A stretch of 64,000 nt of DNA, taken from the NCBI GenBank assembly GCA_009691445.1, contig SICL01000006.1, positions 2,486 to 66,485 on the forward strand, given 5' to 3'. Below, one piece after another: positions 7,081-64,000 of the stretch. Below the pieces are notes generated by a model. That model worked only from the letters and a program-made list of their open reading frames with translations, was not told the origin of the DNA and searched no databases. Each line of letters begins with the position of its first letter. Position 1 is the first letter of the stretch. The stretch is from Candidatus Taenariivivens baikalensis. Its GTDB lineage: Bacteria; Omnitrophota; Omnitrophia; Omnitrophales; Aquincolibacteriaceae. The position numbers and the translations under genes are program-made.

Positions 7081-7168
7081 AGGAAAAGAGGGGAGAAGGA
7101 AGATGGAAGAGGGAAGAAAAAAAAGCGGTTTTAATCTTCCCTCTTCCATCTTCTTTCTTCCTTCTACA
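7081..7168. repeat. Intergenic hairpin element made of inverted arrays of the heptamer GGAAGAN around an A-rich loop. Member of the heptamer-array hairpin family; may also act as a terminator.
   Basis: aggaaaagaggggagaaggaagatggaagagggaag...cttccctcttccatcttctttcttccttct read directly. Confidence 0.6.
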
Positions 7169-9074: not shown

Positions 9075-9274
9075 GCTGTTCTTTGAGAGGGTGCAAGATC
9101 GCCTAATTTCCTGACCTAGGAAAACGGGAGATGCGTTTTAAGGGTGAACCCCGCAGAAAGCCGAAGGGCTATTGTGGGAAGGGTTACTCTGCAACACTGA
9201 TTGAATGATCAGTACGTCCTTTTTAGTTTTTTGGATTGTCCGAACCCGTGAGCTCATCCCGCAGGCGTGGCAGA

Positions 9275-9327
9275 GAAGCCTTCTTTTATAGTCTCGTAAA
9301 GAGATCATAAAAGAAGGCTTTTTTTTG
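9275..9327 (+). terminator. Rho-independent terminator.
   Basis: agaagccttcttttat...ataaaagaaggct stem followed by a T8 run. Confidence 0.6.
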
Positions 9328-11908: not shown

Positions 11909-13578
11909 AATTCAATTTTAGCGGGAAAAAATTAACCGGATCAGAACGCGCTATCCAGCGTTTTTTTGAGATCTTGCCTGGGGCCACAAGCTGGTTTATT
12001 TTGATCGGGATGACACTGCTTAGTTTCTGGAACCCCATTTTGGCCGCGGTGTTGATTATTGCCTTTGATTTTTTCTGGATCCTCCGCCTTTTTTTCATGA
12101 CCCTCTTTTTGGTGATTTCCTATTTCCGACTTTCCCTGGAAAAGGAGACGGACTGGATGGCTCGACTTCACGGGCTTAATCATCTGACGGATGCTCTGAC
12201 GTTCCTGAATAAGGATTTTGGTACACGCAGTCTCCCTCAAAAAATTTCTTCCTGGATCCACCGGAAAGAAATGACGGAGCTTCAAAGAAGCGGCGCTTCC
12301 GTTCCTGATTTTAAAAAAATTATCCACTTGGTTCTGATTCCGATTGTGAGAGAGACGCCGGAAATTCTTCGCGACAGTATTTCCAGTTTTCTCAACGGCT
12401 ATTTTCCTTCCGAACAGATTCTCGTCGTGATCGCGCTTGAGGAACGCGCGACCGAGGACGTGAAAGCGGGTGCCCAGCAGATGGCCCGGGAATTCGAAGG
12501 CAAATTTTTTGACTTTAAAGTGATTTTGCATCCCAATCATATTCCGGGGGAGGCGCGTGTGAAGGGGGCTAATGTGACCTACGCGGCTCGGGAAATGACG
12601 CGATATTTTGAACAAAAGGAAATCTTGTTTGATCGCGTGATTGTTTCTTGCTTTGATGCGGATACGGTTGTGGACGCGCATTATTTCGGATGCTTGACCT
12701 ATCAATACATGGTTTGCCCCAAGCGCGAGCGCGCGAGCTTTCAGCCCATTCCGGTTTATCACAACAACATCTGGAAGGTTCCGGGATTTGTGCGCGTGCT
12801 GGAAACAGGGTCTTCCTTTTTCCAGCTTGTAGAATCCACGGACCCGGAAAAACTCGTGACCTTTTCCAGCCACAGTATGAGTTTCAGGGCGCTTGTGGAA
12901 GCGGATTATTGGCCGGTGGATATGATTTCGGATGACTCGGCGATTTTCTGGAAATGTTACATCCACTATGATGGCGATTACCGGGTTGTTCCTCTTTATG
13001 TCACGGTCTCGATGGATGTGGCTGACGCGGGGAATTGGTGGAAGACCATTGTGAATGTTTATCGGCAGAAACGTCGTTGGGCCTGGGGTGTGGAGAATTT
13101 TCCGATTGTGATGCGCGCCTTTCTTCAGGCGAAAAAGATCCCGTTTTCCGAAAAGATGGGCCACGGAGTCAAACTTTTTGAAATGCACGTGGCCTGGGCG
13201 ACTTGGGCGTTTCTGCTTTCTGTGATCGGCTGGCTTCCAGCCCTTTTTGCGGGCCGCGAATTTTCGCACTCCGTGCTTTATTACAGCACCCCCCGCATTA
13301 CCGCGATTATTTTTGGATTTTCCACCTGTGCGCTTGTCGTCACGATTATCATGAGCCTGTGGCTCCTTCCCAAGCGTGAAAAAAGAGATTCTGTATTCCG
13401 GCGACTTGGATTCGCTCTTCAGTGGGTGTTTGTTCCCGGTATTTTTACTTTTCTCAGCACTTTGCCGGCCCTCGAAGCCCAAACGCGTTTGATGCTCGGT
13501 GCCTATATGGAAAAATGGGGCACCGATACGATGCAGCGGCCTGCTGTATTTTCCAGTCCAGCGCCGGGAAAGCAGTAG
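11905..13578 (+). CDS. Integral-membrane family-2 glycosyltransferase, processive beta-glycan synthase-like.
   Basis: DxD (CFDADTV), an ISDDSAIF (TED-like) segment and a Q-x-x-R-W motif (QKRRWAWG) as in cellulose/chitin synthase-type GT2 enzymes. Several TM helices. Overlaps the PEGA gene stop. Confidence 0.6.
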   Translation: MKFNFSGKKLTGSERAIQRFFEILPGATSWFILIGMTLLSFWNPILAAVLIIAFDFFWILRLFFMTLFLVISYFRLSLEKETDWMARLHGLNHLTDALTFLNKDFGTRSLPQKISSWIHRKEMTELQRSGASVPDFKKIIHLVLIPIVRETPEILRDSISSFLNGYFPSEQILVVIALEERATEDVKAGAQQMAREFEGKFFDFKVILHPNHIPGEARVKGANVTYAAREMTRYFEQKEILFDRVIVSCFDADTVVDAHYFGCLTYQYMVCPKRERASFQPIPVYHNNIWKVPGFVRVLETGSSFFQLVESTDPEKLVTFSSHSMSFRALVEADYWPVDMISDDSAIFWKCYIHYDGDYRVVPLYVTVSMDVADAGNWWKTIVNVYRQKRRWAWGVENFPIVMRAFLQAKKIPFSEKMGHGVKLFEMHVAWATWAFLLSVIGWLPALFAGREFSHSVLYYSTPRITAIIFGFSTCALVVTIIMSLWLLPKREKRDSVFRRLGFALQWVFVPGIFTFLSTLPALEAQTRLMLGAYMEKWGTDTMQRPAVFSSPAPGKQ

Positions 13579-13745
13579 GCAGTCGGCAGTAAGCAGTAGC
13601 CAGAAAGCAGTCGGCAGTTAGCAGGAGGCAGTCTGCACTAAGAATATTTTTTGAGATTCGTCTTTTCGAATTAAGTTTTTAATCTTTGTTTTCTGCCTAC
13701 TGCCTCCCTGCCACCTGCCGACTGCTTTCTGCCTACTATTTCTCT
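13579..13745. repeat. Large imperfect hairpin of inverted GGCAGTN heptamer arrays around an AT-rich spacer, just downstream of the GT2 gene and upstream of the giant ORF.
   Basis: ggcagtcggcagtaagcagtagccagaaagcagtcggcagttagcaggaggcagt ... actgcctccctgccacctgccgactgctttctgcctact read directly. Confidence 0.6.
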
Positions 13746-13874: not shown

Positions 13875-16800
13875 GTGACTTCTACACGCTCCTATTTTTA
13901 TTCACGGAAATTTCCAAGAAAATTAATTGCATTTCTGACTGCACTTTTCTTCGTCCTTGAAAGTTTTTTTGTAACCCCTCAGACTTGGGCCGCCGCTGTT
14001 CCTTTCGAAGTTCAAGTACCTGCTTCCCTCGATTTAAAACTTTCTCCTGAACTCGGGACAATTGAATCTCTCAAAACCGGTTCTGGACCGCTCATCATTC
14101 ATATCCAGGAAGCACACGGCAATTATGAAACTCAAAAAAAAATCCAGGGTATTTTGCACTCCCTTCACTCTCAGTACGGAATCGATCGCATTTTGCTGGA
14201 AGGCACTGCCTTTAAACTCCACCCAGAACTCGCCCGGTTTTATCCTGAAAATCCCGCACTGAATGAGAAAGTCCTTGAGGCGCTTGCCAAACAGGGAATC
14301 GCAATTGGTCCCGAACTTTTTCTAGCCAAAACTCCGGAGGCCGAGGCGTACGGGATTGAGGATGTTAAACCCTACGTTGCCAATGGCGTTGCCTTTAAAG
14401 AAGTCCTGATTCAAAAAGAGAAAACCAAAAAGTTCCTCTCACTTCTCGATCAGCAGATCAGAGCCTTCAGTGGAACCTACCTGAACGATCCCCTCCGGCG
14501 TTTTCTAGATCGCACGGCCTCGTTTGAGAATCATCCGGACACCTTGAATGATCCGCTGAATATTTTGAAGCTCCAAGCAAAGGAAAATTTGGCGCTTGAC
14601 CTCGAAAGTCCGCTTGCTCAGTTTGACTGGCCGCAGCTGGTGCGTTTGAATGTGCTCGCGGAGATGGAAGGGAAGTTTGAAGGGGGAGCATTTGCGAAAG
14701 AGAAGGAAGCATTTCTTAGAGCAATCAAGGCTTATACGTGGAAGGAAGAAGGAAGAGGGAAGAAGGAAGAAAAAGAGAGAAAGACTTCTCTTCCTTCTTC
14801 CATCTTCTCTCTTCTCTCTTCTGAATTTTCCACTCCCGCCCCCCCCAATCTCGAAACCCAAATGGAATCCCTTGTTTCTCAGCTTCCGAGCGATTTTGAT
14901 TACAAAGCTTATCCCAACGTCAATCGATTCATTGGTCACAAGCTATTAGCCGCAGAGTTAAAAGGAGATGCGCTGCTCAAGGAAATCGAAATACTCACGG
15001 CTAAGATCACGGACAAGCTCGCCAAGACGAAGGAAGAGAAGGAAATCGTTGAGCTTTTGAAATCGTACAAATTGCTGAAGAAGTTATTTGCGCTGGAGTT
15101 AACGGCGGAAGAATATGAGCAAGTGGTAAGCCGTCGGCAGAAGGCAGTCGGCAGTAAAGAGCCGGAGAAAGGCAGTTCTGCCTACTGCATACTGCCTACT
15201 GCTTTCTTGTCCCGATTCGCCGCTCTCAACCATGAAAATCGCATCAAGGACTTGAATTTTCGAGTGGGTTCAAAAATTGACGCTTTGTACGAAAAGGCGC
15301 TGGAGTTTTACCGTCTCGCCAAAGAGAGGGACGGAATCATGATTAAAAATATCGAGAAAATCCTTCGGTCTGAAACCCGAAATCCTAAACTCGAAACTCG
15401 AAACAAATCAAAAATTCAAAATCAAAAATTCGAAACGACACAGAAAAGCAGTTCCGTTTTAGATTTGAATCACTCGAATTTTGAATTTATTTCGGATTTC
15501 GGATTTAGAGTTTCGAGTTTGCCGAAGGCGGTGGTGGTGATTACTGGCGGTTTCCACTCCAAACCCTTTGCAACCTACTTCAAAGATCACGGCTACAGCT
15601 ACGCGCTCATTACTCCCAAAATGATTTCTACGGAAGGTCGCGAGACTTATGTGGATTTTATTCTTAAGAATTTTTCTCCAGCCCAGACTTCAAATTTTAA
15701 AATTGCACCTAGGGTCATGTCAACACCCTCCGAACTCCTCAGCCTTGGTTTCGGATCAAAAAATATTCAGAGAATGCGATCCGAGGTGAGAGGAATTTCC
15801 AAAAAAGACTACGAGAAATTGGCACACGATGCTCGAGATCCACGTGCGCGCCGAGGCTGGGTCCAGCCAAAGACTTCTGTAACGGGCAGACGGTATCACC
15901 GCCGGGGAATCGGCCAAGCGGCTTTCCGAGACCGCTCTCAAGTTCGCTCGGAGCTCAGGACTCAAGGATCTGAACATTTGCTGGCAGATCGAATGACCAA
16001 AGCTTTGCTTCAAGCCGATCCGGATATATCAGGTCAGGCTGGTTTAGATGTTGCTCATATCAGGGGATCAGCGTCTGCAGGTTCGATTCTGAAGGCTTTA
16101 GAAACTTTGAACACTGAAGAGTTTAAGGCCCTTCGATTGGACCTTAAAGAAAAGTTCGAGCAACAGCTTGCAACGTTTGTGGCTATCAAACCTCATGCGC
16201 TTAAGGAAGAGGCTGCCCTTATTGAGGGATTTGTCAAAGCAGGATTTACGGTTCACCTTGGACCCCAGGTTCAATTCGACGAAATCAAAGCCCGTAATTT
16301 TTACCGGGCGCACGCCTTTGAACCTTTTTTTATTTCGCAGCTGCTTCCCGAGATCACAAAAGGCCCTGCCCGCATTTTGATTCTCGAAAGGGCGTTAGGA
16401 AATGCCGTGGCGGAGGCCCGGAAGGTTGTGGATCAAATACGAAGTGACCGGGGAGTGACGAATAAAGATCCGCAAAATTATGTCCACGCCTCTGATGACG
16501 GCGAAGAGGGATCTGCCTGGCGTGAATCTGGAATCGCGGTTTCAACCTCGGAAGAAATTATGGAAAATATTTCTCAGGCTATTGAGGCGTCAGCTCATCC
16601 TTATGATCAATTAAAATCTGCCCAAAGTCTTGTTGCGATAGGTCAGGTTGACCCTCAAGGAAACGGGCGAAAACTTTTAGAAGGTTTGAAAGTTCCATTC
16701 GGTTTTGATTGGGAGCGCGATTCTGTAGCGGCTAAAAAAATCTTAGAACGTGCTCTCGTCATTCCACAAAAACGATCTGAATTAAGGAAACCAGAAGCAA

Positions 16801-39764: not shown

Positions 39765-39890
39765 TGACCAAGAAACAAGATCCAAGAAACAAACAAAGAG
39801 CCAATCTTTCAATTTTAAAATTTCAATAAATTGTTTTAGATATTGGAATTTGAAGATTCCTTGGTTATTGTATCTTGGTGTTTGGTCATT
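39765..39890. repeat. Intergenic heptamer-array hairpin element (CAAGAWA/CCAAGAW arrays inverted around an AT-rich spacer), copy 1 of 4.
   Basis: tgaccaagaaacaagatccaagaaacaaacaaagag ... cttggttattgtatcttggtgtttggtca. Confidence 0.6.
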
Positions 39891-40401: not shown

Positions 40402-40496
40402 GTAACATCCGGAATCGAAATCCTTTTTTTCTTTCCCGGCTAGTCCTATTGGGCGCTCAGGTTATCCTTTGAGATTGCTTCGTCGGCTGCGGCCTT

Positions 40497-40533
40497 CTCG
40501 CAATGACGTCATTGCGAGCGGAGCGAAGCAATC
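40497..40533. repeat. Palindromic dispersed repeat ctcgcaatgac|gtcattgcgag followed by cggagcgaagcaatc. Second copy of the element seen at 9395-9420.
   Basis: Read directly; 22-nt perfect palindrome. Confidence 0.5.
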
Positions 40534-41629: not shown

Positions 41630-41643
41630 ATACCAAAAATGTA

Positions 41644-41760
41644 ATAACCAAGATACAAGAAACAAGATACAAATAAAGATACAAAAAAACAATAAACCAA
41701 TCTTTGAATTTTTGAAATCTTGTTATTTATTTGGACACTTGTATCTTGTCTCTTGGTTAT
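41644..41760. repeat. Intergenic heptamer-array hairpin element, copy 2 of 4, between cusB-like and cusA-like genes.
   Basis: ccaagatacaagaaacaagatacaaataaagatac ... tttggacacttgtatcttgtctcttgg. Confidence 0.6.
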
Positions 41761-41773
41761 TCAGGACGTGGTT

Positions 41774-53140: not shown

Positions 53141-53191
53141 AATGAATGGATCTCCGACACAGGATTACGTCAGAATGGGTAAGAGACTTAA

Positions 53192-53322
53192 ATAACCAAG
53201 ATCCAAGAAACAAGTATCCAAATAATAATCAAGCGACAAGATGCAAGTGTCCAAACAGTTTGTCATTTGTAGCTTGCTTCTTGGAGATTTGGTTATTATT
53301 TGGTGTTTGTATCTTGGATCTT
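53192..53322. repeat. Intergenic heptamer-array hairpin element, copy 3 of 4.
   Basis: aaccaagatccaagaaacaagtatccaaataataatcaagcgacaagatgcaag ... cttgcttcttggagatttggttattatttggtgtttgtatcttggatcttg. Confidence 0.6.
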
Positions 53323-53349
53323 GCAAAAGAGAGTCCTCTCTTTATGCCC

Positions 53350-53709
53350 TTACCAATTTGCTTCTTTGCGCCCAAGCCAGGTGCGGTCGATCTTGGGGAG
53401 CTTAACTCCCAGACGCAGCGCAAATTTTTCAAACGAATTGCCGTCCAGAAGTTCTTCAAGGGCAAGGGCGTATTTTTTAGCAAACTGGATCTGCCAAGTG
53501 GGGTGATGGCGGTGCTGGCAAATTTCTGCAGCCTTCCGGATAACATCAGCCTGGTTCCATCCTTTTTTAAAATATTTAAAAATCCGAAGCACTTCATCCG
53601 GAATATCGATTTCACGCAGTTCCTCTTCATACTTGCGAAAAAAAAGATCCACGTAGCGACTTGCTGGAACCCAGTGATTGGCCCAGGCCAGTTTGGATTG
53701 CGTTCCCAA
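53350..53709 (-). CDS. Hypothetical protein (119 aa) downstream of the amidoligase-like gene.
   Basis: ORF only, with coding-like composition. It competes with overlapping alternative frames, so the call is uncertain. Confidence 0.3.
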   Translation of the reverse strand: MGTQSKLAWANHWVPASRYVDLFFRKYEEELREIDIPDEVLRIFKYFKKGWNQADVIRKAAEICQHRHHPTWQIQFAKKYALALEELLDGNSFEKFALRLGVKLPKIDRTWLGRKEANW

Positions 53710-53732
53710 CCTAGCGGCCTGGTCGCGGGCCT

Positions 53733-54527
53733 TCAGATAATTAACGTGAGTGGATTGATTGAGCGGTGTTTAAGCCATCGCAAGGTGACGGCGTGGCAAA
53801 CGACGAGGCAGGCGACAATGTATTCTGGAATGGAACTGTCCAGGATTCTTAGTTCCAGGGTGGGCGGTTTTCTGGTATTTCCCCGATTAAAGTTTATTTC
53901 CCGGAAATGATCCTTAAAAAAGCGTTCCCGTTTGGTGATCTTGAAATATTTCTTGGTTCCCCGGAGAAGACGGCTTGAAGGGGGTTTGGTAATCTGCTCA
54001 CGCCAGACCGTTGAATTTGCTGAGAGTGCAATTAGAAAAGGAATATGACCGTGCAAGCACTGAGCGAGTTTTTTTGCGTCGTCATAGGGGATGCCGTCTT
54101 TTCCTAATCCCAAATGAATGTGGCATCCGGAAAATCGGTCAATCCAACCGCCAACGGGGAAGATCGTTAATCGGTGAGTTTCTCCGTTTGATTCGCGGAA
54201 CTTGGCGTATTTGCGGAGGCTGTTTTTGAGTAGAAAAAAGGCCTCGCGAAGGGTGAGGAAGGCTTTGCTGTTAAATTCAGAGCCGATGCTCCAGTCGCGG
54301 GTGAATTGTTCTCCCTTTTCGACGGCGGAACGCTTGGAAAAGTGGAGTTCCCGTGAGATGCGGTTTTCAGCCACATCGATCGAGTAGCTTTCAAGCTCAA
54401 CGCCCATCGTCACGGCAGGTTTTTTCTTGCGGGACTTAACGGTCTTCATGGAACAACGCTGCGCATTGAATGATTCCAGTTTGAACGCGAAATCATAGCA
54501 GAATGCCTCTAGAATAAAAGAACCCAA
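53733..54527 (-). CDS. Putative amidoligase-family enzyme (GCS2 / glutamine-synthetase-like fold). Low-confidence family assignment.
   Basis: N-terminal MGVELESYS resembles the amidoligase G-x-E-x-E motif. 264 aa. Co-directional with, and upstream of, the C26 hydrolase gene. Confidence 0.35.
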   Translation of the reverse strand: MGSFILEAFCYDFAFKLESFNAQRCSMKTVKSRKKKPAVTMGVELESYSIDVAENRISRELHFSKRSAVEKGEQFTRDWSIGSEFNSKAFLTLREAFFLLKNSLRKYAKFRESNGETHRLTIFPVGGWIDRFSGCHIHLGLGKDGIPYDDAKKLAQCLHGHIPFLIALSANSTVWREQITKPPSSRLLRGTKKYFKITKRERFFKDHFREINFNRGNTRKPPTLELRILDSSIPEYIVACLVVCHAVTLRWLKHRSINPLTLII

Positions 54528-59254: not shown

Positions 59255-59554
59255 ATGTCGGAATCTCAAAAGACAAAGAAATATGCAATGCTGGCCGCTT
59301 CGATCGCCGGAATTATGGCGGTTTGCGGAACCGTCTCTTTAGCGTATGCGGATGATATGGCGATGGACAGCAAAGACGGAGTGTCCTGCTACGGGGTCAA
59401 TGCCTGCAAAGGTCAGGGCGCTTGCGGCGGCAAAGGTCACGGCTGCGCGGGTGAAAACAGCTGTAAAGGAAAAGGCTGGATCAAAGCGGAAAATAAAGAA
59501 GCTTGCCTGAAAATGGAAGGCGGAAGTTTGAAGCCAACGGCCATCACGGACTAA
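59255..59554 (+). CDS. DUF2282-family Cys-rich precursor peptide (bufferin BufA-like).
   Basis: Signal peptide, then VSCYGVNACKGQGACGGKGHGCAGENSCKG (the CYGV..C..G..C pattern of DUF2282). Immediately upstream of a DUF692 gene. Confidence 0.6.
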   Translation: MSESQKTKKYAMLAASIAGIMAVCGTVSLAYADDMAMDSKDGVSCYGVNACKGQGACGGKGHGCAGENSCKGKGWIKAENKEACLKMEGGSLKPTAITD

Positions 59555-59555
59555 T

Positions 59556-59672
59556 AACCAAACACCAAGAAACAAGATCCAAATAATTCCAAAATTTCAA
59601 TTTTCAATAGGAGTGGGAATTGGATATTGATTATTGGATTTTATTTGGAGCTTGTAACTTGTATCTTGGTTA
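59556..59672. repeat. Intergenic heptamer-array hairpin element, copy 4 of 4, between the precursor peptide gene and the DUF692 gene.
   Basis: aaccaaacaccaagaaacaagatccaaataattccaa ... ttggattttatttggagcttgtaacttgtatcttggtt. Confidence 0.6.
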
Positions 59673-59679
59673 TTAAATT

Positions 59680-61383
59680 ATGTCATTTCCTCTCCTCGGC
59701 TGCGGCATCGGTCTTCGCGCTCCTCACTATGCTGAAATTCTAGGGCCGGCCCGAAAATTGGACTGGTTCGAAGCCATCTCTGAAAATTATATGGATACCG
59801 GAGGGCGTCCCCTCCAGATCCTCGAAAAAATCCGCAAGAACTATCCGGTTGGACTTCACGGGGTTGCACTTTCCGTGGGTTCAACGGATCCGATCCATCT
59901 TCCTTATCTTGAAAAATTAAAAACCTTGATCGACCGCATTGATCCTGCGATTGTCTCCGATCACATTTGCTGGTCGGGCGTGGCCGGTGAACATTTACAC
60001 GACCTCTTGCCCCTTCCTTTCACGGAAGAATCCATCCGCCTGATCGTTGAAAAAACGGACCAGATTCAGAATTTTCTTGGACGTCAGATCCTGCTTGAAA
60101 ATGTTTCGACTTATGTCACGTTCAAACATTCCGAAATGCAGGAATGGGATTTTGTGCGGGAGATCGCAAGGCGGTCCGGCTGTGGACTTCTTCTGGATAT
60201 CAACAATGTTTATGTCAATGCTCGTAATCACGGCTTTGATGCCCAGGAATATCTCCGGAATATTCCCGGAGAGTTTGTGGGACAGATCCATCTTGCTGGG
60301 CACACGGACAAGGGTAAATTTCTTTTTGATACACACAGCTCTCCGGTGATCGATGAGGTTTGGGAACTTTACCGCCAGGCGCTGGAATTGTGGGGAAGCA
60401 AGACGACTCTGATTGAGTGGGATGAGGATATCCCTGAGCTTGAGCGCCTGATTGACGAGTGTGATAAAGCGAGAAAGATTTATCAAAGTGTTCGTGTTGA
60501 ACGTCATTGCGAGGAGTCCCTCAGGGACGACGCGGGAATCTCTGTCAGAAAAGGCGGGATTGCTTCGCTTGCGGCTCGCAATGACATCAAGGTAGAAACA
60601 TCTTTAAAAAACATCCAGCTCTGGATGCAATCTCAAATCAGGGACGGTTCTTCCCAACTTCTGGAAGCGCAACAAGTTACAGAAGAACCGTCCCTGAATC
60701 CCCAGGCCGGGGACCCGGGAGTAGAACGTCTTGACGTTTACCGCGAAGGTTATTTGGCCCGCACCGAAGAATCCCTCAAAGAAGTTTACGAAGCGGTTCG
60801 CCACGTGCTGGGCGACGGCGTGTTTCATGATCTTGCGCATCAGTACGCGCAAAGTTTTTCTTCTCCGGATTTTAATCTTAATCTGAAAGGCCGCAGTCTT
60901 CCGGATTTTTTAAAGCAAACCTCTTGGACTGAAAAGCTTCCATTTCTTCCGGATCTGGCCTGTCTCGAATGGAAAATTGCGGAAGCATTTCATGGTTTTG
61001 ACAAACCTGCTTTTGATCCTTCTTTCCTTTTTCAGTTAAATTCGGAAGATTGGAAAAATCTCCGGATTCTTTTTCAGCCGTCCGTATCGCTTCTGGAATC
61101 TTCCTGGCCCATCCTGGATCTCTGGCAGAGTCGAAAAACTCCTGTGGAGGAAATTAGAATGGATCTTGTGAACCGTCCTCAAAAAGTGTTAGTGGCCCGC
61201 CGCCCCAGCAAAGAAGTTTTTTGCCGTCTTCTTACTGAGCGGGAATTCCGGGTTTTGATTCTTCTGAAGCAGGGTAAATCCCTGGGTGAAATGTTTGAAT
61301 TTTTTGATGAAGAGGAAGCCGATCTTCCTCTGACGGATTGGTTTTCTGCCTGGACGCGGGAAGGCTTGATCGCTTCTTCTTAA
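59680..61383 (+). CDS. Fused DUF692 (MNIO/MbnB-like multinuclear iron oxidase, BufB-like) and DUF2063 (BufC/MbnC-like partner) protein.
   Basis: N-terminal half (LGCGIGLRAPHY...SDHICWSG...HLAGH...IEWDEDIP) matches the DUF692 TIM-barrel family. C-terminal half (LDVYREGYLART...DFNLNLKGRSLPDFL) matches DUF2063. 567 aa. Confidence 0.7.
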   Translation: MSFPLLGCGIGLRAPHYAEILGPARKLDWFEAISENYMDTGGRPLQILEKIRKNYPVGLHGVALSVGSTDPIHLPYLEKLKTLIDRIDPAIVSDHICWSGVAGEHLHDLLPLPFTEESIRLIVEKTDQIQNFLGRQILLENVSTYVTFKHSEMQEWDFVREIARRSGCGLLLDINNVYVNARNHGFDAQEYLRNIPGEFVGQIHLAGHTDKGKFLFDTHSSPVIDEVWELYRQALELWGSKTTLIEWDEDIPELERLIDECDKARKIYQSVRVERHCEESLRDDAGISVRKGGIASLAARNDIKVETSLKNIQLWMQSQIRDGSSQLLEAQQVTEEPSLNPQAGDPGVERLDVYREGYLARTEESLKEVYEAVRHVLGDGVFHDLAHQYAQSFSSPDFNLNLKGRSLPDFLKQTSWTEKLPFLPDLACLEWKIAEAFHGFDKPAFDPSFLFQLNSEDWKNLRILFQPSVSLLESSWPILDLWQSRKTPVEEIRMDLVNRPQKVLVARRPSKEVFCRLLTEREFRVLILLKQGKSLGEMFEFFDEEEADLPLTDWFSAWTREGLIASS

Positions 61384-61587
61384 GTCTCTTCCACTACTTA
61401 CTTCCTAAATCGTTTTACCTGCTCCTGATTTCTGCCTAGGTTTAGCTATCTAATGCTATAAATTGATAGTCAAAACAATACAAAGTTCTATGTTAGTTGA
61501 AATAGTATAAAGCTGAGGGTAACTTTTAATAGGACAGCTGTGCCTAGCCAATAAATAAGTACGCACGTAACCTGAGTTGGAGGAAGT

Positions 61588-64000
61588 TTGAACAGGCTTA
61601 AAACCTATTCAAAAGTGAATCGTCTGACAGCAGCATTCACGGCCGTCATTTTTTTGATCACAAGCTATCCATCGCCGCAGGCACAGGGGATGGAACCTTC
61701 CGCTTCCTTGCCTGCTCCCTCACTCCGAAATATCCTCGAAGACCTAAGCGCGATTCAGCTTCCCAAAGATTTTGGAAAAATTCAGGAAAGCTACCGCGGA
61801 AGCTCCGATAAAGTCGCGGTGCTTGTCCAGGACGCGCACTCCATTCCCGATGCGCAGAGAAACATTCAAAACATCATTGGCTTTTTCCAAAAGGAGTATG
61901 ACGTCTCCTTGGTCGGAGTCGAAGGAACCGCCGCCCAATTGGATCCTCAGATTTTCCACAGTTTCCCGGACCGGAAGAAACTTCGGGAAGTGTTTGAGGA
62001 ATATTACGAGCGCGGGGAATTGACAGGGGGAACCGCGGCTGCGATCTTTAGTCGACAGTCCACAGTCGACAGTCCACAGAAAGAGCACGAGGGTTTAAAC
62101 CGTGGACCGTGGACTATGGACCGTGGACTCGCCTTTGAAGGTCTCGAAGACTGGCCTCTTTACGAGCGCGGTGTTTCCGAATTTTTAAAAGCCCTTAAGG
62201 AGCAAAAAAAACTGAGTGAAGTGTTGGACGGGAAACGTGAAGCGCTCAAGAAAGAAAAGGAGAAATTCTACAGCAAGGAACTTCTGGAAATTGACACAGT
62301 CCTTAATCAGTTTCACAAGAATCAGGGGGATTTGGTTGAGACTGTTAAAGTTCTGGCAAAGTACAAGAAGCCGGAAGGGGAGTTGGGGCTCATTCTGAAG
62401 AAGACAGAAGGCAGTAAGCAGGAGGCAGGAAAGATCGAGTTTGAGGTGAAGAGAATTGCCAGGGAAGTGGAAAAAGCTCTCAAAACATTAAAGTTAGAAG
62501 GGGAAAAAGAAAATTCAAAAACTTCCAACCTCGAATTTCAAGCGAAGAAGCAGCTCTACCAAACCTCTCAATTATCCACCGACGACTATGGACTTTATCT
62601 CAGAGAGACCATCGAGAAGAACCACTTGCCCATCAAGTTATCTCTCCATCTTCACCGAGAAGCGGAAGAAGCCCAGAGACTGAGAGATTTAGAAGGCACC
62701 CGTCTCTTCAAGGATTTTGAACGTTACGGGCAATCGGTCAAAGCCAAGCTTTTCCGAAATGAAAAGGAGAGGATTCTGGATCAGGAAAATCATGAGATGG
62801 AGCTGCTCACTCGCTTTGCGAGTCTGGAGCTGAGCCAGGAGGATTGGGAGGAGGTTAAAAGGTTAAAAAGTGAAAAAGTTAAAAAGTTGGGAGACGAAAA
62901 CTTTTTGACCTTTAAACTTTTGAACTTTTCAACGCATTTTAACTTTTATGAAATCGCCGAACAGCGCGACACCAGCCTTTTTAAAAATACGCTCGCGCTA
63001 ATGAAATCCCATCAAGTCAAAAGCTCTTTAGTGATTGCCGGAGGATTTCACGCCGAAGGACTGACGCAAAAACTCAAGGCCAACGGCATTTCCTATGTGC
63101 TGGTGATGCCGGAAATTAAAACTATGCCGGAGCATTCTCTTTATTTGGAGCACATGAAGGGGAATGTGTCGTGGAAGAATTATTTTGAGGTGAAGGATGG
63201 GAAAGTAAATCTTTATGAGGCGTTTGTGAGAAGCAGCCGCGACCGACTGCTGAAGTTAGAAGCTAGAAGTGGGAAGTTGGAAGAACGAAATCAAAAAGCA
63301 TCTCCCTTCGAACTTCAAACTTTGAACTTCCAACTCGCGAAGCTGTGGAGAGACCAAATCATCCGTGACCTCGCTGCGAAGAATGAACTCACCAAAGCCC
63401 ACGATTACACAAGATTCATTGATGAACTTAGCAAAGAGCATAGCGCAGACCTGCCCGCCGAAGCGAAGCGGCAGGCGGGGAGCAAAGGGTCTGAAAACTC
63501 TATGCCCTATGCTCTTAGCTCACTGCTTCGTCAGCAGTGGCTCTCAAACATTCACCGCTTCATCGACGGCCTGAAAAATCTAAAATCCCGCGGTGAAATG
63601 GATATCCCGAACGTCACACAGCTTCTCAACTCTTTTTCCACCGCCGCGCCCGCTCTCGCCGGAGCACTTTCGAATCAATGGGTTGCTGGGTGGATTTTAG
63701 GTTTTGAAGAAAAACGTTCCGAAGTAAGAACGAACCCCTCCGAACCGGACGGCGCGCGGTCAGTGTCCAAGCTTCACTCTTCAACCTTCACTCCTAACTC
63801 ATCTTCCCGCTCCGAAGCGCGCTCGCAGAATGCTGAACCCAGTCAGGGGACGATCCCTGCCGGGGACAGACCCCGGGATCTCACGGAGATTAATGCGAGG
63901 TACGGAAGCAAAGGGTTGGATAAAATCCTGGCCGCCATCCGGAAGATCTATCTTTCAAATGGTTATTCCGATACTGAATTTAACCCGTATCTTGCCTTGA
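61588..64000 (+). CDS. Start of a second large secreted protein, truncated by the window edge and paralogous to the N-terminal Tiki/TraB-like region of the giant ORF. Putative TTG start at 61588; exact start is uncertain.
   Basis: Manual translation gives a signal-peptide-like N-terminus, VLVQDAHS...VGVEGTA and SLVIAGGFHAEG (matching IIHIQEAHGN...LLEGTA and VVVITGGFHSKP in the giant ORF). It has RSEVR and RSEAR motifs near 63715 and 63805. No stop is seen before the window end. Confidence 0.6.
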   Translation, partial: MNRLKTYSKVNRLTAAFTAVIFLITSYPSPQAQGMEPSASLPAPSLRNILEDLSAIQLPKDFGKIQESYRGSSDKVAVLVQDAHSIPDAQRNIQNIIGFFQKEYDVSLVGVEGTAAQLDPQIFHSFPDRKKLREVFEEYYERGELTGGTAAAIFSRQSTVDSPQKEHEGLNRGPWTMDRGLAFEGLEDWPLYERGVSEFLKALKEQKKLSEVLDGKREALKKEKEKFYSKELLEIDTVLNQFHKNQGDLVETVKVLAKYKKPEGELGLILKKTEGSKQEAGKIEFEVKRIAREVEKALKTLKLEGEKENSKTSNLEFQAKKQLYQTSQLSTDDYGLYLRETIEKNHLPIKLSLHLHREAEEAQRLRDLEGTRLFKDFERYGQSVKAKLFRNEKERILDQENHEMELLTRFASLELSQEDWEEVKRLKSEKVKKLGDENFLTFKLLNFSTHFNFYEIAEQRDTSLFKNTLALMKSHQVKSSLVIAGGFHAEGLTQKLKANGISYVLVMPEIKTMPEHSLYLEHMKGNVSWKNYFEVKDGKVNLYEAFVRSSRDRLLKLEARSGKLEERNQKASPFELQTLNFQLAKLWRDQIIRDLAAKNELTKAHDYTRFIDELSKEHSADLPAEAKRQAGSKGSENSMPYALSSLLRQQWLSNIHRFIDGLKNLKSRGEMDIPNVTQLLNSFSTAAPALAGALSNQWVAGWILGFEEKRSEVRTNPSEPDGARSVSKLHSSTFTPNSSSRSEARSQNAEPSQGTIPAGDRPRDLTEINARYGSKGLDKILAAIRKIYLSNGYSDTEFNPYLAL
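62050..62130. repeat. In-frame heptamer-array hairpin (AGTCSAC arrays inverted) inside the second large gene.
   Basis: agtcgacagtccacagtcgacagtccacag ... ccgtggaccgtggactatggaccgtggactc. Confidence 0.5.
62854..62935. repeat. In-frame heptamer-array hairpin-like element (AAAAGTT / AACTTTT) inside the second large gene.
   Basis: ggttaaaaagtgaaaaagttaaaaagttggg ... cctttaaacttttgaacttttcaacg. Arms are imperfectly complementary. Confidence 0.4.
63251..63340. repeat. In-frame heptamer-array hairpin-like element (GAAGTNN / NNACTTC) inside the second large gene.
   Basis: gaagttagaagctagaagtgggaagttggaagaacg ... cccttcgaacttcaaactttgaacttccaactcgcg. Confidence 0.45.

Follow-up and report, generated by a model that had tools for sequence, protein, structure and literature searches.

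A 64,000-nucleotide stretch of the genome of Candidatus Taenariivivens baikalensis, a member of the Omnitrophota (contig SICL01000006.1, positions 2,486 to 66,485 of the forward strand), here called the window, carries two long genes whose paralogous N-terminal domains are interrupted in frame by hairpin-forming DNA with tandemly repeated arms. One, the edge gene, reaches the last letter of the window; the other is a giant open reading frame (ORF) at 13875-38423. Their common domain, which we call the leader domain, defines a large, undescribed family heading long and giant Omnitrophota proteins. We favor, with a probability of roughly 0.55, a reading in which permissive loops of this domain are recurrently colonized by palindromic or slippage-generated hairpin DNA, as with Rickettsia palindromic elements (RPEs).

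Inverted-repeat and tandem-repeat searches located four in-frame hairpins in the edge gene. A preliminary description, made from the letters of the window alone, had listed three; all lie where it placed them, but the second has a period of 8, and the fourth had been missed. Scores below are z values against dinucleotide shuffles, of which 1-4 in 200 fold as well as the edge-gene hairpins.

61588..64000, + strand: edge gene, 5' part of a gene for a long protein, 804 codons without a stop, TTG start
62050..62129, + strand: edge hairpin 1, period 7, arms of about 4.3 copies of the heptamer AGTCSAC / GTGGACN, z = -3.5
62854..62933, + strand: edge hairpin 2, period 8 (not 7), arms of about 4.4 copies of GTTAAAAR, z = -2.8
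63251..63335, + strand: edge hairpin 3, period 7, heptamer GAAGTTN / CTTCNAA, z = -2.4
63421..63529, + strand: edge hairpin 4, absent from the preliminary description, z = -3.7

The arms of hairpins 1-3 consist of 4-4.5 tandem units, while hairpin 4 has heptamer-like outer arms (AGCAAAG AGCATAG / CTATGCC CTATGCT) around an inner G+C stem. Hairpin 1 encodes residues 155-181, an insertion of 22 residues relative to P0001 and P0002, the closest homologs found. Hairpin 3 encodes residues 555-583 at hot spot D (block 12 of a 79-member family alignment) and adds 16 residues relative to the same two proteins, and hairpin 4, encoding residues 612-647 at hot spot E (block 13), adds about 22 relative to P0001-P0003. 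Hairpin 2 sits in the variable linker of block 10, where its array begins on the conserved V-K codons of EDWxxVK.

The same description had taken the edge gene for a paralog of the N-terminus of the giant ORF, and pairwise alignment bears this out. BLASTP between the 804 edge residues and the N-terminal 1,000 residues of the giant ORF returns a single colinear alignment (E = 4e-11, 21% identity, 615 columns), with conservation strongest at two motif regions; the shared domain covers giant residues 1-600. The three hairpins said to interrupt it are also there.

13875..15704, + strand: paralogous N-terminal domain of the 8,182-aa giant ORF, recognized by BLASTP and by an AlphaFold model with the same topology as the edge domain
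14741..14822, + strand: giant-ORF hairpin 1, residues 290-316, GAAGGAA / TCTCTTC, z -3.8
15133..15202, + strand: giant-ORF hairpin 2, residues 420-443, GGCAGTN / NACTGCC, z -3.5
15372..15520, + strand: giant-ORF hairpin 3, residues 500-549, GAAAYYC... / ...GGATTTC

Giant hairpin 3 is a 48-residue insertion directly before the GGFH strand, described below. In the AlphaFold models, those hairpin-encoded stretches that fall within the modeled regions lie in or beside segments with a predicted local distance difference test score (pLDDT) below 50 or form the tip of a helical hairpin. Edge hairpin 1 corresponds to model residues 123-143 (pLDDT <50) and the loop of edge hairpin 2 to residues 401-405 (pLDDT <50), modeled within a helix-loop-helix. 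Low pLDDT also marks the giant-ORF hairpins, at model residues 252-286, 389-399 and 463-510, respectively. The hot spots, which vary in length across the family, fall on loops that both models predict with low confidence.

A hairpin that encodes a hydrophilic and then a hydrophobic arm might instead be selected at the protein level, as an amphipathic loop or helical hairpin offering a variable binding surface, akin to the proposal made for palindromic amphipathic repeat coding elements (PARCELs; PMC2996958). The purine-rich 5' arms do encode K/E/R/G-rich peptide and the pyrimidine-rich 3' arms S/L/F/P-rich peptide, and the helix-loop-helix modeled for edge hairpin 2, like the PARCEL precedent, agrees with such a role. 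We think it highly improbable all the same: most hairpin-encoded stretches have pLDDT <50, hairpins at a given site have no conserved peptide motif in common, and the same DNA class is found in non-coding DNA.

The preliminary description had further supposed that the hairpins predate the divergence of the edge and giant genes. The family comparison does not support this: the insert positions differ, the closest homologs lack the inserts and the carriers are scattered on the tree. P0001 and P0002 have alignment gaps at edge hairpins 1, 3 and 4; no hairpin was found at the P0002 locus, and none in L004. Edge inserts fall in blocks 4, 10, 12 and 13 of the alignment and giant inserts in blocks 7, 10 and 11, so that the only insert site common to the two genes is the block-10 linker, where the units are unrelated (GTTAAAAR versus GGCAGTN). 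On a neighbor-joining tree, hairpin-bearing members are dispersed and have close sisters without them. The sisters L077 and L029 display a clean gain at site D: the linker of L029 is 7 residues long, and in L077 a 70-base hairpin separates the conserved RDRLLG from DPRLLK. Judged from these alignments, the old trait is the propensity of the domain to acquire hairpins, not the individual hairpins.

This propensity is visible across the family. Our hairpin scan, aimed at hairpins with periodic arms, covered 1.21 Mb, that is, the window and 80 loci; the prefilter of the whole-window z-score scan leaves out A+T-rich hairpins. Leader-domain segments make up 12.6% of the scanned DNA including the window and contain 17 of the 24 heptamer hairpins (p = 7e-11). 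With the window set aside, the density per 100 kb is 7.4 in the domain, 0.65 upstream and 0.42 downstream, where downstream DNA is mostly the remainder of the same ORFs (p = 6e-7), an 11-18-fold enrichment over flanking DNA. Regardless of periodicity, 87 lineage-specific inserts of at least 14 residues have a mean folding z of -2.33, with 53% below -2. The corresponding values for 87 length-matched conserved control segments of the same genes are -0.01 and 3.4% (Mann-Whitney p = 9e-14). Of the 26 inserts at hot spot D, 17 fold into structures, about 12 of them heptamer-periodic, and the structured inserts at the same loops that lack heptamers belong to other palindrome classes (GTCATTGCGAG..., GTCATTCCCGC..., GTAGGGGC...GCCCCTAC). 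In-frame palindromic repeats of other classes occur in L071, L058, L009, L017, L066 and L045 (blocks 10-12, the same hot spots); the peptides that such classes encode include SLRARQGLRGEAIS, MDSRFRGNDK and VGAPLVGARTEGRGQAPPLQ.

Strand also matters. The purine-rich arm lies 5' on the sense strand in 16/18 genic hairpins and in 7/7 other heptamer hairpins (window and loci L005-L084). Both the concentration and the polarity bear on an alternative in which the hairpins are selected cis-acting nucleic-acid structures placed early in very long genes, where they might pace translation, offer RNase sites, or affect transcription processivity or premature termination. Selection of this kind would fit the crowding into the leader-domain segment, the reuse of sites by distant paralogs whose hairpin sequences are unrelated (the non-heptamer hairpins of L014 and L043 among them), the constant polarity and the structured state of 53% of inserts. 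Against it, heptamer hairpins are detectable in only about a quarter of family members and in none of the closest homologs, and in 15/18 genic hairpins the antisense strand folds better than the mRNA does. Identical hairpin classes also occur in ordinary intergenic DNA, and another palindrome class in an unrelated gene. Sense-strand mismatches of the genic hairpins favor A.C over G.T by about 2.4 to 1; this bias and the weaker mRNA folding fit, in a small sample, selection against strong mRNA structure. No U tract follows any edge-gene hairpin and no + strand terminator-like site was found in 61300-64000, so we rejected intrinsic terminators as an identity for the hairpins. A known RNA family was likewise rejected, since Rfam gave no match for the edge-gene hairpins and, elsewhere in the window, only a c-di-AMP riboswitch. 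Overall, we regard a selected nucleic-acid role as doubtful, though it retains some weight, since neither enrichment nor polarity follows from tolerance alone.

The same kind of hairpin fills intergenic DNA. Of the 11 window hairpins whose arms reach 20 nt or more, 10 show a period of 7 or 8 in the arms; the only non-periodic one is the terminator of the c-di-AMP riboswitch. That riboswitch (Rfam RF00379, 54 bits) spans 9090-9320; the terminator hairpin occupies 9276-9320, and a T run comes after it. Of the periodic hairpins, five or six lie between genes, immediately behind a gene. At least eight different repeat units occur in the 64 kb, seven arrays lie inside ORFs, and the arrays detected with Tandem Repeats Finder have period 7 and 3-9 copies. 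Two intergenic examples have relatives within the giant ORF.

7087..7165, + strand: intergenic heptamer-array hairpin AGARGGR, relative of giant-ORF hairpin 1, z -8.6
13572..13737, + strand: intergenic heptamer-array hairpin GGCAGTN, beginning at the stop codon of the upstream ORF

Giant-ORF hairpin 1 and the hairpin at 7087-7165 are 93-96% identical over 24-28 nt, and the GGCAGTN unit is common to giant-ORF hairpin 2 and the array at 13572-13737. A dispersed family of four copies (39767-39879, 41643-41761, 53189-53298 and 59552-59675) combines ACAAGAW heptamer arms with conserved AATAACCAAG / CTTGGTTATT ends; three copies are intergenic and one sits in the opening 150 nt of ORF 53146-53910, which may truly start farther downstream. 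Within the family, paralogs of different clades from the same genome carry a common element at the same position (L071/L077 and L009/L058). Together, the related genic and intergenic copies and the same-site elements in paralogs point to copying or conversion within a genome.

Other features point to local origins. Arrays run into conserved flanking codons: that of L018 continues into the LLK codons, that of L021 ends on the D-S-R codons, and the outer stem of the L077 element is built from the D-P-R codons. In 14/18 hairpins an arm overlaps alignment columns occupied in at least 85% of members. Arrays that merge into conserved codons in this way suggest local slippage and fold-back copying. 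Seeding on flanking codons would also explain why distant members have alike units at site D without shared descent. Edge hairpin 3 is 93% identical over 30 nt to the same-site hairpin of L018.

Outside the leader-domain family, the fusion gene of MbnB_TglH_ChrH and HvfC_N domains (ORF 59680-61383) contains two in-frame palindromes between its domains (60503-60586 and 60638-60697), one of the GTCATTGCGAG type, which also occurs at 40486-40529, and the other a perfect 16-bp stem.

The architecture of the arrays allows a further explanation to be weighed, in which they are contingency (phase-variation) tracts: a 7-base unit gained or lost would shift the frame and turn the long protein on or off, or else would diversify a surface loop of a multi-copy secreted family. 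A unit that is not a multiple of three, located early in a very long ORF, is what such a tract would have, and the family is multi-copy with hypervariable loops. In addition, a family member in the metagenome-assembled genome (MAG) nzgw332 is split into ORFs of 562 and 1,236 aa by a frameshift at a C11-12 homopolymer (L001 11670-11682; also L002 and L003). This tract lies exactly at hot spot D, and three independent assemblies agree on its state; either phase variability or a sequencing error common to all three could account for it. Nevertheless, the arrays of the window are not the long, perfect tandem tracts of contingency loci but consist of 3-5 imperfect units (68-92% matches), and short, imperfect arrays slip far less often; each is paired with an inverted copy that a contingency tract does not need; and the only second assembly of the strain is identical over an intergenic hairpin. 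We consider phase variation very unlikely. The second assembly, a Logan contig, matches the window exactly up to its end at 60076. With this identity, and with hairpins seen in independent MAGs, an assembly artefact was rejected, as was an origin as protein repeats, because a 7-base period cannot arise from codon repeats.

We therefore return to recurrent colonization of loops as the favored reading. The hairpins would not be part of an ancestral design; DNA of a class that also fills the intergenic regions of the genome would arise or land repeatedly in a few length-variable surface loops of the leader domain. Two routes may be envisioned. In the first, a 7-base unit would start on flanking codons and expand locally by slippage, and fold-back (template-switch) copying would then create the inverted arm. 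In the second, genome-specific palindromic elements would move by copy-and-paste or gene conversion between intergenic sites and paralogs. By either route, only stop-free events that keep the frame would survive, adding 15-50 residues of disordered or helical-hairpin peptide that may be neutral for the protein. The analysis demonstrates the paralogy, the size of the family, the reality of the hairpins with their lineage-specific distribution and hot spots, and their placement in loops of the models, while the mutational mechanism, neutrality and an enzymatic nature of the domain are inferences.

Several observations weigh against this reading. The 11-18-fold concentration is hard to explain by tolerance alone, as the rest of the same ORFs is also linker-rich, and the constant polarity suggests a strand-specific process or function. 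At site D, sister genes have linkers that are alike in length and unrelated in sequence, each forming a hairpin, which looks like maintained structure or repeated replacement. No edge-gene hairpin has a second copy within the 64-kb window, and therefore mobility is not demonstrated for these four. Finally, the matches behind a hydrolase assignment of the leader domain, discussed below, are all sub-threshold.

We turn to the genes that carry the hairpins. The frame of the edge gene is open from 61576, after an in-frame stop; its first start codon is the TTG at 61588, just downstream of a GGAGG at 61579-61583, and it is unclosed at the window end at 64000. An early stop was looked for and not found: on an ENA contig with an identical upstream gene, the protein extends to at least 1,223 aa and the called frame runs off the contig end. 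The landmarks of the encoded protein are as follows.

61621..61689, + strand: hydrophobic segment and PQAQG, residues 12-34, a signal-peptide-like or N-terminal anchor region read from the translation and kept in homologs
61819..61929, + strand: N-lobe motifs, strand and QDAH (residues 78-85), strand and EG (residues 108-114), with invariant Q, H, Q, E and G; model strands 41-47 and 73-76
62152..63009, + strand: insert domain made of helices only, separating the two lobes of the alpha/beta core, residues about 189-474, from the AlphaFold model (helices 154-439)
62944..63057, + strand: C-lobe motifs FY..A..RD (residues 453-461), strand and GGFH (residues 479-490), with invariant F, Y, R, G, G, F and H; model strand 444-450
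63715..63822, + strand: two RSE[VA]R motifs, RSEVR at 63715-63729 (residue 710) and RSEAR at 63808-63822 (residue 741)

Each motif that had been read by eye, namely VLVQDAHS (residues 78-85, 61819-61842), VGVEGTA (residues 108-114), SLVIAGGFHAEG (residues 479-490, 63022-63057) and the two RSE[VA]R motifs, is at the position reported for it. The proposed signal-peptide-like start also appears sound: a basic LTAAFTAVIFLITSY precedes a 15-residue hydrophobic segment and PSPQAQG, and the leader is shared by homologs, whose alignment begins at residue 1 and leaves F22 and T25 invariant. The edge gene would encode the leader module of a long Omnitrophota protein that is secreted or associated with the membrane, with a signal-peptide-like N-terminus followed by an alpha/beta domain that a helical insert of about 290 residues splits.

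The suspicion that the edge and giant genes are members of one family heading long or giant genes was well founded. An exhaustive HMMER profile search returned 9,701 cluster representatives with the leader domain, 6,531 of them at E<=1e-30; word-indexed protein searches yielded only 8-20 matches, a poor return owing to low-complexity words. The domain occupies residues of about 50-530 in nearly all of the best 150 hits, and the median length of 156 family proteins is 2,721 aa (maximum 7,984 aa). Six homologs align to the edge protein at 36-43% identity (E 1e-90 to 1e-146). A GTDB scan recovered 150 relatives of the edge protein, all from Omnitrophota MAGs (best match, 42% identity), and a metagenome scan with the same protein gave no match. 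Leader-domain genes occur in several copies per Omnitrophota genome, with at least seven in one MAG. Invariant in the family are the Q and H of Q[DE]AH, the Q six residues on, EG, two G, Y, FY, R, GGFH, P and Y. The edge gene has the whole colinear series (QDAH, EG, helical insert, FY..A..RD, GGFH, P and Y) with significant similarity, and the series stands at the very start of a protein of more than 1,000 aa, preceded by a hydrophobic leader. No Pfam or NCBIfam model matches the leader domain at threshold.

Beyond the domain, these proteins would consist of modules parted by RSE[VL]R. The motif RSE[VLIMA]R occurs 566 times in the 156 family proteins, and 116/156 have at least one. In the giant ORF, RSE[VLAMI]R has 27 sites (residues 635, 691, 967, 1136 ... 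7920), always between detectable modules (NDK, AlaDH/PNT and others); besides the two in the edge gene, a single further occurrence lies among all other real ORFs of the window. A search of a paper library for the string RSEVR gave no relevant match. We consider RSE[VL]R a candidate linker or processing site of long proteins. As to the modules themselves, NDK spans residues 767-878 of the giant ORF and the AlaDH/PNT N and C domains residues 3111-3448; glucosamine-isomerase and GFO/IDH matches are weak, and most of the length is without a Pfam match.

The preliminary description had called the domain Tiki/TraB-like. Conserved motifs and weak ChaN/Ere matches make this plausible, but no Pfam or NCBIfam search reached threshold, including the Pfam searches with core constructs. 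The AlphaFold N-terminal models (edge pLDDT 84, predicted template modeling score 0.75; giant 70 and 0.66) agree in their order of elements: strand-QDAH, helix, strand-EG, third strand, an all-helical insert of about 290 residues, strand-GGFH, helix and strand. Foldseek against the PDB found nothing significant for either model, although the non-significant top matches of both include the erythromycin-esterase-family structures 6xcs, 6xcq, 3b55 and 2rad. A profile search against PDB sequences produced spurious helical matches only. The sole recurrent Pfam match is a weak one to PF04187 (ChaN, Tiki superfamily), sub-threshold in 3/5 and 5/18 core constructs (best E 0.0017-0.0025, 18.8 bits against a cut-off of 27.7) and always on the RD...GGFH region, which in the edge gene is the C-lobe motif region. 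PF01963 (TraB) and PF05139 never appeared among the Pfam matches. With no threshold match to curated models and PF01963 absent, a test for the TraB family in the narrow sense came out negative.

TraB, GumN and ChaN proteins typically bear an RD...G-x-x-H signature on either side of a late strand, and EreA-type members carry a helical insertion. The leader domain would resemble the Tiki/TraB-PrgY-GumN/ChaN/EreA proteins in its alpha/beta core, in the His after the first strand and the Glu after the second, and in RD...G-x-x-H. It differs from them in that its first motif is QDAH rather than GxxH, its helical insert is about 290 residues long, it heads proteins of several thousand residues, and it reaches no curated threshold. 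Within the family, the H, E, R and H show no variation, and their putative equivalence to Tiki-superfamily residues is drawn from weak alignments and from the motifs. From the weak PF04187 and Ere-family matches and the RD...G-x-x-H signature, we consider a distant relationship to the Tiki/ChaN/EreA-type fold likely but unproven; the domain is probably a distant hydrolase fold of this type, with the conserved His, Glu, Arg and His in QDAH, EG, RD and GGFH, and it heads thousands of long proteins, the giant ORF included. A bolder version of events makes the leader segment a dedicated target of heptamer slippage and fold-back, with hairpins as programmed loop diversification or cis-acting expression structures and the domain as a Tiki-like protease cutting a polyprotein at RSE[VL]R. 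This we judge unlikely.

If the favored picture holds, a single profile recognizes the front end of about 10,000 long Omnitrophota proteins, and the profile together with RSE[VL]R gives candidate module boundaries or cleavage points. An Omnitrophota giant-gene preprint says that its structural analysis was blocked by a lack of module-boundary information. The family would then be a natural experiment in protein growth by palindromic DNA, in which half of the sizeable insertions are hairpins, and the RPE idea would reach a phylum that is free-living or predatory and cover a new repeat architecture. The unexplained 11-18-fold concentration and the fixed polarity could point to targeted mutation or to a regulatory structure of giant genes.

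Among known systems, RPEs are the closest in behavior. They are in-frame palindromic inserts within genes that are also found between genes (review PMC10969869). The hairpins described here share with them hairpin DNA that is both intergenic and in frame, absence from orthologs, and a surface peptide that the host protein tolerates (PMC10969869); those examined here are hairpin-forming, are missing from orthologs and fall in loops with pLDDT <50 in both models. RPEs, however, form families of about 100-150 bp with a conserved consensus and hit many unrelated genes, whereas the arms here are tandem 7-base arrays of many sequences, mostly without a detectable second copy, and the coding hairpins are concentrated in one domain family and a few hot spots. 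Dispersed-repeat relatives within the 64 kb are known for giant hairpin 1, the GGCAGTN pair and the four-copy intergenic family, and for none of the edge-gene hairpins.

Cyanobacterial short tandemly repeated repetitive (STRR) sequences are tandem heptanucleotide units, abundant between genes, with one or few fixed units per genome. STRRs and the inverted GGGAATC arrays of Xanthomonas and Nostoc resemble the present arrays in having tandem 7-base units, often convergent and capable of forming stem-loops. Here, in contrast, the unit varies from site to site and arrays stand in frame inside ORFs, so that the units and intra-ORF arrays counted in the 64 kb do not form a small fixed intergenic set. 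Heptameric repeats are in excess in bacteria, which has been attributed to polymerase slippage, and inverted heptamer arrays are described from Xanthomonas (PMC4692102). PARCELs are likewise dyad-symmetric coding DNA in membrane-targeted or surface proteins, patchy in distribution and thought to be shuffled within genomes (PMC2996958), but they are tandem 25-residue protein repeats with a recognizable hidden Markov model, while each insert here is a lone hairpin that encodes no conserved peptide. Repetitive extragenic palindromic sequences, bacterial interspersed mosaic elements and miniature inverted-repeat transposable elements are short dispersed hairpins at gene ends, as is the four-copy AATAACCAAG family; the arms of the latter are heptamer-periodic, no associated transposase was seen, and inspection by eye revealed no clear target-site duplications.

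The genes themselves recall the Omnitrophota giant genes of two preprints (bioRxiv 10.1101/2023.11.21.568195; 10.64898/2026.06.07.730766), very long ORFs whose N-terminal regions are mostly without identifiable domains. They have in common with ours the phylum, signal peptides and mixed enzyme-like modules; the text of the preprints, as searched, does not mention the domain, the hairpins or the heptamers. Distinctive here are in-frame hairpins with heptamer arms of changing sequence, strongly concentrated in one leader-domain family of long and giant genes.

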